Source: Escherichia phage slur07. Taken from it: a stretch of 64,000 nucleotides of DNA. The position numbers and the translations under genes are program-made. The notes below the pieces were generated by a model. The model did no database searches and was not told the DNA's origin. It saw only the letters and a program-made list of their open reading frames with translations. Each line of letters starts with the position of its first letter. Position 1 is the stretch's first letter. The DNA is taken from the sequence record NC_028780.1. One strand, 5' to 3'. Of the stretch, positions 2,515-5,406 are shown one piece after another.

Positions 2515-3755
<1,241 letters not shown>

Positions 3756-3813: not shown

Positions 3814-4230
3814 ATGACTCGTATCAATTTAACACTTGTTTCTGAACTGACCGACCAACATCTTATGGCTGAGTATCGTGAATTGCCGCGTGTTTTTGGT
3901 ATAGTTCGTAAACATGCGGCAAATGGTAAGCGGGTTAAAGATTTTAAAATATCTTCCGAGTTTATTTTAGGCTCTGGTCATGTTACGTTCTTTTACGATA
4001 AGTTAGAATTTTTGCGAAAGCGTCAATCAGACATTATAACGGAATGCTTAAAACGTGGGTTTAGTATAAAAGATACTGAAGTTCCTGACATCAGCGATAT
4101 TCCAGCAGAATGGAAAAATGATTATAATCCATGCAAATCAGCTATTAAATTGAGTCAACAACGACTCGATGAAAAAATTTTAATGAAGCCACACTGGTAC
4201 AAGTATTACGGCAAAAATATTTACATTTAA
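3814..4230 (+). CDS. denV: endonuclease V (pyrimidine-dimer DNA glycosylase)
   Basis: 138 aa starting [12 protein letters not shown]...; matches T4 DenV length and sequence as recalled. Confidence 0.9.
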
Positions 4231-4239
4231 AGGAAACAT

Positions 4240-4713
4240 ATGAAAACATATCAAGAATTTATTACTGAAGCAGCTATTAATTCTCAAATTATTGCTGAAT
4301 CTTTTACTGATCTTTTGAAATTTAAAAAAGGTCAAAAAATCACTGCTGTATTGGATGATGGTACAGAAGTTGAGATGGATGTACAGGGATATAATTATGC
4401 AGTAGATGGAAAACTGTATAATAAATCTCATGCTAAATTTGATTCATTTGACGACTTTGTTAATACAGTTGAAGATGAAAAAACTCGTAGATCCATTGCA
4501 ACTGGTGATGCTAAGGTTCTTATGGCACACGGCCATGAACGCATTCGCGCTAAGCAGAATAAAATGGGCGAAGATAATTTCGCATTAGTTGGTTATCAAT
4601 CTGGTAAACAAACTTATGGTTATCAGCGTACTGCTACCATGTATAACAAAAATGGTAAAATCGCTTTCGTGAATAGTAAAGGTTCTGTTCAGTACGTCAA
4701 ATCATTCAAATAA
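4240..4713 (+). CDS. internal protein with capsid-targeting sequence
   Basis: 157 aa, N-terminus MKTYQEFITEAAINSQ (T4 IP-type CTS, ITE cleavage motif). Confidence 0.75.
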   Translation: MKTYQEFITEAAINSQIIAESFTDLLKFKKGQKITAVLDDGTEVEMDVQGYNYAVDGKLYNKSHAKFDSFDDFVNTVEDEKTRRSIATGDAKVLMAHGHERIRAKQNKMGEDNFALVGYQSGKQTYGYQRTATMYNKNGKIAFVNSKGSVQYVKSFK

Positions 4714-4866
4714 GCAAATAAGAAATATGGGAACAAGCTGGACCTCATGATTCTATGAGGGATTCCCGCCAACCTGTAATAAGGTCGAGCCCAAGTGCGG
4801 TAATGGGTAAATACAGAAATGGAAAATTCATGCGCCATGGAATGGCCCAAATTTAGAGAGAATAAA

Positions 4867-5406
4867 ATGAGAACATTTTTAACTGGTCCTTATCTATCCC
4901 TGATGAATGCTTTTACACACCATTCTGATGCTAGAGTAGAAGAAATTTGTAAAAACGATTATATCCCACCATTTGAAGACTTACTCAAGCAGTATTGCAC
5001 ACTTCGATTAGATGGTGGCAGACAATCCGGTAAATCAACTGCTGTGACTAACTTTGCTGCTAATTGGCTGTATGATGGTGGAACAGTTATTGTTCTTTCT
5101 AATACTTCAGCTTACGCTAAAATTTCTGCGGGCCACATTAAAAAAGAATTTTCTCGTTATTCTAGCGATGATATTCGATTCCGCTTATTTACCGATTCTG
5201 TCCGTAGTTTTATCGGTAATAAAGGAAGCAAGTTCAGAGGTTTATCGCTTTCGCGGATTTTGTATATAATCGATGAGCCTGTTAAATCTCCTGATATGGA
5301 TAAAATTTACGATATTCATATTGAAACTGTGCACCACTGTTGCAATAGTAAATGCTGCATTGGTGGTATTACTCGTCCACAGTTTTTCATAATCGGAATA
5401 CAATGA
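4867..5406 (+). CDS. P-loop NTPase, function unknown
   Basis: Walker A GGRQSGKST and Walker B-like IIDEP; ATG 4867 (track ORF starts 4819). Confidence 0.55.
   Translation: MRTFLTGPYLSLMNAFTHHSDARVEEICKNDYIPPFEDLLKQYCTLRLDGGRQSGKSTAVTNFAANWLYDGGTVIVLSNTSAYAKISAGHIKKEFSRYSSDDIRFRLFTDSVRSFIGNKGSKFRGLSLSRILYIIDEPVKSPDMDKIYDIHIETVHHCCNSKCCIGGITRPQFFIIGIQ

Follow-up and report, generated by a model that had tools for sequence, protein, structure and literature searches.

The 64,000-nucleotide (nt) stretch of Escherichia phage slur07 (NC_028780.1) analysed here, referred to as the window, contains a structured RNA element in the spacer between the genes ip4 and vs.8. On comparative evidence, positions 4728-4848 of the + strand belong, as its T4-type member, to a widespread family of RNAs that has no entry in Rfam and is confined to phages, and both this identity and the predicted structure are regarded as close to certain. 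The element is composed of a universal core (4728-4825) and of a 3' extension, present in T4-like phages only, that reaches approximately to position 4848. The predicted fold is a nested double pseudoknot with the strand order of HDV-like ribozymes (HDV, hepatitis delta virus). An earlier note, made from the sequence alone, had proposed a small RNA, a regulatory element or the scar of an indel as explanations of the spacer. Covariation, a covariance-model match with an E-value of 4e-13 and conservation across unrelated phage families support a structured RNA and speak against the scar. No description of the motif was found in the literature searched.

Fold and covariation of the RNA

From 5' to 3', the family architecture begins with a helix P1a of 4-6 base pairs (bp), an internal loop (a hairpin loop in some lineages), the variable hairpin P1b, which some lineages lack, and the 3' strand of P1a. 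Directly 3' of the latter follows the helix Pc (3-5 bp), which closes the invariant three-way junction A-CCUGUnnnAAGG-UC-(G)AGCC..GCGG-UAA. Within the junction the order is AA, hairpin A (CCU-GUnnnA-AGG), UC, hairpin B ((G)AGC-loop-GC GG) and UAA. After 0-8 nt, a strand 3' of Pc pairs into the internal loop of P1 and forms the pseudoknot. The helix sequences are lineage-specific on this common architecture, and conservation is focused in the junction and the stem residues; the loops of both hairpins and every peripheral helix are free to vary.

In the window, all parts of the element lie on the + strand. P1a pairs GGGAA (4729-4733) with UUCCC (4763-4767), the counterpart of which in the comparison locus L023 (loci are numbered with the prefix L) is GGGAG/CUCCC. 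P1b, read directly, is the hairpin CCUCAU-GAUUCU-AUGAGG (4743-4760); it corresponds to CCUUAU/AUAAGG in L065, to CCUCA/UGAGG in L023 and to a larger insert in the long-type T4-likes. Pc pairs GCC (4768-4770), followed by the junction residues AA (4771-4772), with GGU (4806-4808). Hairpin A (CCUG-UAAU-AAGG, 4773-4784; closing pair A4772-U4785) has an invariant stem and a variable loop, UC and hairpin B (GAGCC, loop CAAGU of free sequence, GCGG) occupy positions 4785-4800, and the invariant junction strand UAA with the following UG occupies 4801-4805. The pseudoknot pairs CUG (4738-4740), in the 5' internal loop of P1, with CAG (4814-4816).

The stem of hairpin A was the same in every member found, with loops GUAAUA, GUGAAA, GUAGCA, GUAACA and others; because the stem pairs never vary, their pairing is inferred and not demonstrated. 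The sequence GGUAA was present in all members, but it was also demanded by every search pattern; it is still kept in second copies found by the covariance model only (L035, 5077-5169). The + strand, which is also the gene and tRNA strand, is taken as the functional one because G-U pairs are frequent and tolerated. An alternative register of Pc from a greedy helix search (CCCG/UGGG in T4, ACUCA/UGAGU in group C) fails in L079, and it was rejected because it needs wobble pairs where the model with P1a and Pc has true compensatory changes.

Covariation was analyzed in alignment A1, made by MAFFT alone from 25 distinct T4-like copies of the long type, and in alignments across lineages; A1 was also the basis of the covariance model R1, in which the pseudoknot was left out. 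In A1, 92.9% of the cells were paired in comparison to 26-41% with slid partners, and 10 pairs changed on both sides. The covariation score was 0.251, against at most 0.062 in the slid controls, and none of the 500 shuffles reached it. In all alignments every variable helix was supported by covariation, with approximately 92-96% of the cells paired vs 26-47% in slid controls; the overall value was 92.4% across lineages (alignment A2) and 95.7% in the divergent members. The four pairs of P1a were 100% paired in both sets examined, one of 36 and one of 16 distinct sequences; each pair showed 2-5 types, and 3-5 across lineages. One pair of Pc in A1 was CG in 16 and GC in nine copies and another had three pair types, and in A2 the corresponding counts were CG in 31 and GC in five, with five types in a further pair. 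Also the inner pair of hairpin B, C4790-G4797, covaries (CG:35/UA:1 in A2; UA:8/CG:4/GC:2 in the divergent members).

The three central pairs of the pseudoknot, columns 11-13 with 107-109 of A1, were 100% paired, with 2, 4 and 2 pair types. In an alignment-independent test of 22 lineage representatives, the mean energy of the cognate duplexes was -6.65 kcal/mol vs -3.90 +/- 0.41 kcal/mol for permuted partners, and none of the 20,000 permutations was as good as the real partners. Searched against the 64-kb window, R1 gave a single match at 4728-4825 (54 bits, E-value 4e-13) that covered model positions 1-117 of 117, and full-length matches were found in every other lineage. The window has both properties that define the family, the full-length R1 match with P1a, Pc and hairpins A and B, and the pseudoknot in the columns paired throughout.

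The earlier note had singled out two nested inverted repeats. The 6-bp hairpin CCTCAT (4743-4748)/ATGAGG (4755-4760) with the loop GATTCT lies where it was reported, and it is surrounded by GGGAA (4729-4733) and TTCCC (4763-4767). Both are real, but they represent only the variable 5' domain P1, while the invariant core (4768-4810) and the pseudoknot had been missed. A perfect hairpin of at least 6 bp arose by chance in 13% of the shuffles.

Distribution and genomic context of the family

A sensitive BLAST search with the spacer matched 1,113 phage records. The central 30-45 nt showed 86-95% identity in phages unrelated to T4, including 137-kb rV5-like phages and a 44.9-kb phage, and outside the T4 relatives the matches were almost always in unannotated DNA. 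With the 47-nt core alone, 1,092 phage records were matched, and core identity was 86-100% across unrelated phage families. Pattern scans on the shared core, CCTGTnnnAAGGTC(n)AGCC(n3-7)GCGGTAA, detected 43 IMG/VR stretches and 30 metagenome stretches, and relaxed patterns together with the covariance model added more divergent members. The strict core pattern had no match in 185,579 bacterial and archaeal species genomes (one genome each; the Escherichia coli collection was not searched separately), and host origin or mimicry was rejected on this basis. Because the core is 86-100% identical across unrelated phage families, the RNA must matter for infection.

Members verified by the model or by eye included several genera of Straboviridae, Vequintavirus naswa, Phapecoctavirus DE16, the N4-like Klebsiella phage Pylas (Schitoviridae), Vibrio phage F93, a 360-kb jumbo phage contig and phages of approximately 45 kb such as Ivi. 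In T4 itself, R1 matched the denV-vs.8 spacer. Vibrio phages of approximately 60 and 130 kb were matched in the core by BLAST only. According to the BLAST summaries 18 Campylobacter phage records also match the core; none of these was among the matches listed, and they were never inspected. If these matches are real, the family extends beyond phages of Gammaproteobacteria.

Two tandem copies of the RNA were present in some Karamvirus-type genomes (L021, 8967-9084 and 9102-9195; L035, 5187-5304 and 5077-5169; L075; L038) and in a 44.6-kb phage (L089, about 835-975). The second copy is more divergent, hairpin B being AGUC..ACGG in L035, and in L038 both hairpins, A and B, are extended to stems made up of Watson-Crick pairs only. 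The tandem copies suggest duplication of the RNA gene followed by divergence.

In the T4-likes the element has vs.8 on its 3' side and denV, or an inserted ip gene, on its 5' side, and it fills the whole intergenic space from the upstream stop codon to approximately 16-23 nt before the vs.8 AUG; in T4 it begins at the denV stop codon. Outside the T4-likes it is on the tRNA strand inside or within about 1.2 kb of tRNA arrays at approximately 19 of the 29 loci examined, and further such cases were seen. In several phages it stands just upstream of the array. It lies between tRNA-Thr and tRNA-Gly in DE16 and downstream of tRNA-Glu in the 360-kb contig, and in L043 it begins approximately 5 nt after tRNA-Ser and is followed by a hairpin and a U-run, seen in the sequence although missed by the terminator scanner. 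In L044 the element is bracketed by promoter-like and strong terminator-like sites. The distances to the upstream tRNA were about 5, 15, 21 and approximately 100 nt, and the T4-like copies have no adjacent tRNA.

Apart from terminase/spanin synteny within related phages, no protein-gene neighbour was common to the 25 non-T4 lineages, and Pfam and PHROG searches of the flanking proteins were uninformative. Homologues of vs.8 were found by tblastn in T4-like records only, and what follows the element on its 3' side varies: vs.8 in the T4-likes, an ip gene in L019, and tRNAs, a promoter or a terminator elsewhere. Because there is no common neighbour and vs.8 is restricted to the T4-likes, the RNA is considered an autonomous module and not the leader of one gene.

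Some further features were seen around the element in the tRNA arrays. In Pylas-like and 46-kb phages (L012, 10480-10780; L030, L037, L040, L042, L054 and L076) a long-range stem, CAGUGCUCUUAUCGUUGUGAC ... GUCACAAC ... AAGAGCAUUG, encloses it, and the 5' half of this stem is repeated along the tRNA region, a possible sign of a modular unit by which small RNAs of these arrays are processed or packaged. The rV5-like phages have the motif CCCCUUAGAGGGCUUGAUAGUGC 5' of the RNA (L004, 1400-1450; flanks of L016, L056 and L063), and a second subtype has the near-copy CCCAUAGAGGGACUUGAAAGUGC on the 3' side; this motif could be a promoter or a processing signal. The arrays hosting the RNA also include a tRNA with the anticodon CUA (amber suppressor type) and several tRNA-like genes reported by ARAGORN with anticodons of 4 or 2 nt (loci listed: L081, 1556-1631; L004, 2582-2680; L079, 3587-3669; L054, 4505-4594; L111, 2780-2853).

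The T4-like locus and candidate functions

The window represents a Tequatrovirus (T4-like) genome in antisense orientation relative to the T4 map, with the closest records 98-99% identical. Its genes run in the order e (2989-3477), a gene for an internal head protein (3459-3755), denV (3814-4230), the internal-head-protein gene ip4 (4240-4713, stop codon TAA at 4711-4713), the spacer (4714-4866) and vs.8 (4867-5406, + strand), after which come vs.7 and the remainder of the vs cluster. Both head protein genes begin with MKTY(S/Q)EF, a sequence of the capsid-targeting type, and denV is flanked by them on both sides. Related phages carry inserted ip genes on one or the other side of the RNA (downstream of it in L019), and for this reason the shuffling of ip genes appears to respect the boundaries of the RNA. 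The product of vs.8 is a P-loop protein of 179 amino acids (aa; PHROG 1488) whose GGRQSGKS motif is Walker-A-like and which weakly matches the ATPase of the terminase large subunit in PHROG (E-value 5e-6); it is mislabelled as RegB endoribonuclease or large terminase in various records.

Direct reading of the sequence bears out the gap of 153 nt between the ip4 stop codon and the conserved vs.8 ATG at 4867 that the earlier note had reported, and also its elevated GC content, which is 0.425 in the spacer vs a window mean of 0.343 (top 3.6% of the 153-nt windows) and reaches 0.488 in the RNA proper (4728-4848; top 0.23%). The further claim that the gap has no convincing open reading frame (ORF) needs qualification: a 33-aa ORF (4755-4856, + strand) overlaps the RNA and an in-frame ATG at 4819 would lengthen vs.8, yet the ORF was judged not to be a gene.

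The 3' extension of the T4-likes (4820-4848, + strand) consists of AUGGA (4820-4824), the hairpin GCCAUGGAAUGGC (4834-4846) and a following CC. The block GCCAWGGAAUGGCCC is conserved in all T4-like copies, and the hairpin GCCAWGGAAUGGC, in which no covariation was seen, ends 16-23 nt upstream of the vs.8 start codon. An extension helix, UACAU/AUGUG, shows a compensatory change to UACAA/UUGUG in L036 and the PG7-type copies and is poorly formed in the window. T4-like genera with vs.8 proteins only approximately 37% identical keep the block at the nucleotide level, and it is read in different frames in the T4-type and JS98-type copies. Because the nucleotides are kept while the frame differs among genera, the constraint is considered to act on the RNA. 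All T4-like copies have two invariant GGA motifs approximately 20 nt apart, one in AUGGA and the other in the loop of the hairpin. [quoted passage not shown] The JS98-type sequence AUACAUGGAUGA also resembles this consensus, and downstream hairpins of the rV5-like copies likewise expose GGA at their loops.

That the region encodes a small protein, either the 33-aa ORF or an N-terminal extension of vs.8, was considered very improbable. The ORF exists and is annotated in some GenBank records, in the T4 reference NC_000866 it is fused in frame to vs.8 (219 aa), and the same frame is open, with a start upstream of the core, in 42 of the 72 copies. However, a usable start is absent or within the core in the rV5-like, most group-C, Ivi, PG7-type and L043 copies, the stops are scattered from +27 to +141 nt from the core CCUG, and the frame in which the conserved 3' block is read differs between T4-type and JS98-type copies. 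Furthermore, the substitutions are compensatory for base pairing, G-U pairs included. The long T4 form starts at an ATG inside the RNA hairpin (window 4755-4866 = NC_000866.4 64,793-64,912, minus strand; L080, 1294-1413), and only T4 lacks a stop codon equivalent to TAG 4854-4856, the other records having the 179-aa vs.8. The earlier note had held that coding homologues would speak against its proposal; formally such a homologue exists in the 219-aa T4 annotation, but as the long ORF is peculiar to T4 and starts, stops and frames are not conserved, this annotation does not refute the RNA. The long form of T4 vs.8 is probably an annotation artefact, and so, probably, is the 102-nt 'hypothetical protein' coding sequence of MK327945, ON528743 and similar records. 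An intrinsic terminator, a promoter region or a non-functional indel spacer is hardly credible, even though the region is intergenic and one GenBank record labels the core 'terminator'. Nothing terminator-like was detected on the + strand within 4200-5400, promoter-like sites were no commoner than in shuffles, and no helix of the window element is followed by a U-run. A neutral scar was rejected because the core is nearly identical across virus families and shows covariation. Taken jointly, a coding gene or a terminator has at best a very small chance of being correct. The reference annotation of T4, the best-studied virulent phage, hides the element under an extended vs.8 frame. The result corrects the gene models of vs.8 and of the spurious ORFs of 33 aa that hundreds of records carry, and makes a covariance model available for annotation.

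Considered as a whole, the combination of family membership, the proposed fold and a stable RNA that binds a partner in trans is the best explanation, and one that we are just inclined to accept; its mechanistic part, taken separately, is tentative. According to it, the double pseudoknot would be a rigid, nuclease-resistant scaffold presenting the invariant junction, and the junction would be the active part that binds a conserved host or phage protein, or possibly a small ligand. In most phages the RNA would be cut from tRNA-array transcripts by tRNA-processing nucleases, or would have its own promoter and terminator, and after release would act in trans as a stable small RNA. In the T4-likes it would be part of the early/middle polycistronic mRNA, placed after the stop codon of the upstream gene and before the ribosome-binding site of vs.8, and either be kept there or be processed out; with this position in the mRNA and the extra 3' GGA module, it may also act in cis, be it on vs.8 or on how stable the flanking mRNA is. 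A stand-alone RNA would fit the placement in tRNA arrays, the bracketing sites of L044, the terminator-like hairpin of L043 and the lack of a common neighbour gene. Several points weigh against this explanation. The trans action is pure inference, and an invariant junction with free loops is more typical of ribozymes or aptamers than of protein-binding small RNAs. The classical catalogues of stable low-molecular-weight RNAs of T4 are not known to list anything beyond the eight tRNAs and species 1 and 2, which all come from the tRNA region; as the T4 copy is missing from them, it is presumably not an abundant free RNA. The alignments across lineages were fitted to R1 and are thus biased towards the structure, although A1, aligned with MAFFT only, gives the same answer. 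The window's own pseudoknot, CUG/CAG, is the weakest in the family (3 bp, -3.2 kcal/mol), and the single-sequence folding energy of the region is unremarkable: its fold was no better than chance (minimum free energy z-score -0.24 on the + strand and -1.39 on the - strand). All of the significance of the predicted structure is owed to comparative evidence.

A self-cleaving or processing ribozyme, either divergent HDV-like or of a new class, that would cut tRNA-array or early transcripts is rather unlikely. The strand order is identical to that of the HDV-like ribozymes, whose theta subgroup adjoins phage tRNAs (PMC10879173), and the invariant junction, free loops and variable helices form a conservation pattern known from small ribozymes; also the varied genomic contexts and the tandem copies in some genomes would agree with it. 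The defining catalytic C at the first J4/2 position is however missing: the linker 3' of Pc, 0-8 nt long, has A as its first residue in the window and U in copies of the JS98 and PG7 types, and naswa and group C have no linker at all. A conserved L3 or P1.1 is lacking, P1, at 4-6 bp, is shorter than in HDV-like ribozymes and its closing pair is G-C, not G-U, the conserved part is the equivalent of P4, which is dispensable in HDV-like ribozymes, no ribozyme model scores even at an E-value of 10, and the upstream tRNA is 5-100 nt from the element, not within the +/-5 nt of the cleavage site seen in theta. A cis-acting mRNA element, be it a riboswitch-like aptamer or a protein-binding leader controlling the translation of the downstream gene (vs.8 in the T4-likes), a barrier to decay or processing, or a put-like antiterminator of long untranslated tRNA transcripts, is likewise unlikely. 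It would account for the way in which the element fills the T4-like intergenic space up to approximately 16-23 nt before the vs.8 AUG, for the possibly CsrA-like GGA pair and for the position just upstream of the tRNA array in several phages, and aptamers often combine a three-way junction with a pseudoknot. Against it, the downstream gene is not conserved and no neighbour gene is shared, a terminator-like hairpin stands directly 3' of the element in L043 and L044 with no obvious expression platform, and nothing was seen that would sequester the vs.8 Shine-Dalgarno sequence. That the junction, held within an HDV-like double pseudoknot, serves as the active site in a new class of natural ribozyme or ligand-sensing RNA is doubtful, although conceivable; if true, such a class would have spread horizontally through the tRNA arrays of virulent phages and been present unnoticed in T4.

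Comparison with known RNAs

A search with the 4,227 models of Rfam 15, lax filters included, gave no match, the best overlapping scores being 9-10 bits vs gathering thresholds of 80. Models of the HDV, CPEB3, hammerhead, twister, pistol, hatchet and hairpin ribozymes gave none up to an E-value of 10 in the window and L043 and up to 5 in L004-L006. ARAGORN detected no tRNA or transfer-messenger RNA (tmRNA) gene in the whole window, and identity with either was rejected as no cloverleaf was found. A mapping to the hammerhead (A15.1-U16.1, GUC triplet at AAGG-UC) was discarded by eye, the CUGANGA and GAA strands being absent. Resemblance of GGUCGAGCC to a kink-turn, T-loop or T-arm is contradicted by the covariation of hairpin B, and that of UGUAAU to the Alu domain of the signal recognition particle was judged to be chance. 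Hairpin A shares the GUAAUA hexaloop with the GTPase-associated centre of 23S rRNA, but mimicry of this centre was rejected as the hairpins come in another order and conservation of the loop is lacking.

Approximately 10,000 candidate structured viral RNAs were catalogued in 2023 from covariation in IMG/VR intergenic regions, evidence of the kind used here (PMC10690425). The main text of that study describes no such motif of T4, rV5 or tRNA arrays, and the new motif may be one of its unnamed 'DNAVirus_n' entries.

The strands of the HDV-like ribozymes follow the order P1-P2-P3-P1'-P4-P2', and the new RNA has the same order in P1a(5')-PK(5')-P1b-P1a(3')-junction domain-PK(3'), PK being the pseudoknot (PMC10879173). 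The theta ribozymes of gut phages and the new RNA are both encoded by phages, often near tRNAs, with variable helices around few conserved residues. As the defining features discussed above fail, the RNA was not filed as an HDV-like ribozyme despite the shared strand order. Riboswitch aptamers with a three-way junction and a pseudoknot likewise have short helices around a conserved junction locked by a long-range pseudoknot; unlike them, the new RNA has no consistent downstream gene or expression platform, is found in tRNA arrays and belongs to no known class.

Closer in setting are the rnaC and rnaD (species 1 and 2) of T4, stable RNAs of the tRNA cluster with unexplained function (PMC9697503). 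They too are structured small RNAs encoded by a phage on the same strand in or near tRNA clusters, where other phages carry the new RNA, but rnaC has a tRNA-like 3' end, which the new RNA lacks. A paralogous relationship was rejected, since the single R1 match within 63.5-74.5 kb of T4 is the denV-vs.8 spacer and neither rnaC nor rnaD. GOLLD and ROOL are non-coding RNAs of phages and prophages, 'often near tRNA islands', with multiple pseudoknots and no known function or protein partner (PMC12286853). They differ from the new RNA, to which no Rfam model matches, in being 5-8 times larger, in forming homo-oligomeric cages and in their other host groups. The RNA described here joins GOLLD, ROOL and T4 species 1 and 2 as a functionally unexplained phage RNA linked to tRNA islands. 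As it is only approximately 100 nt long, has a precisely defined core and is present in genetically tractable coliphages, it makes the role of such tRNA-island RNAs directly testable.

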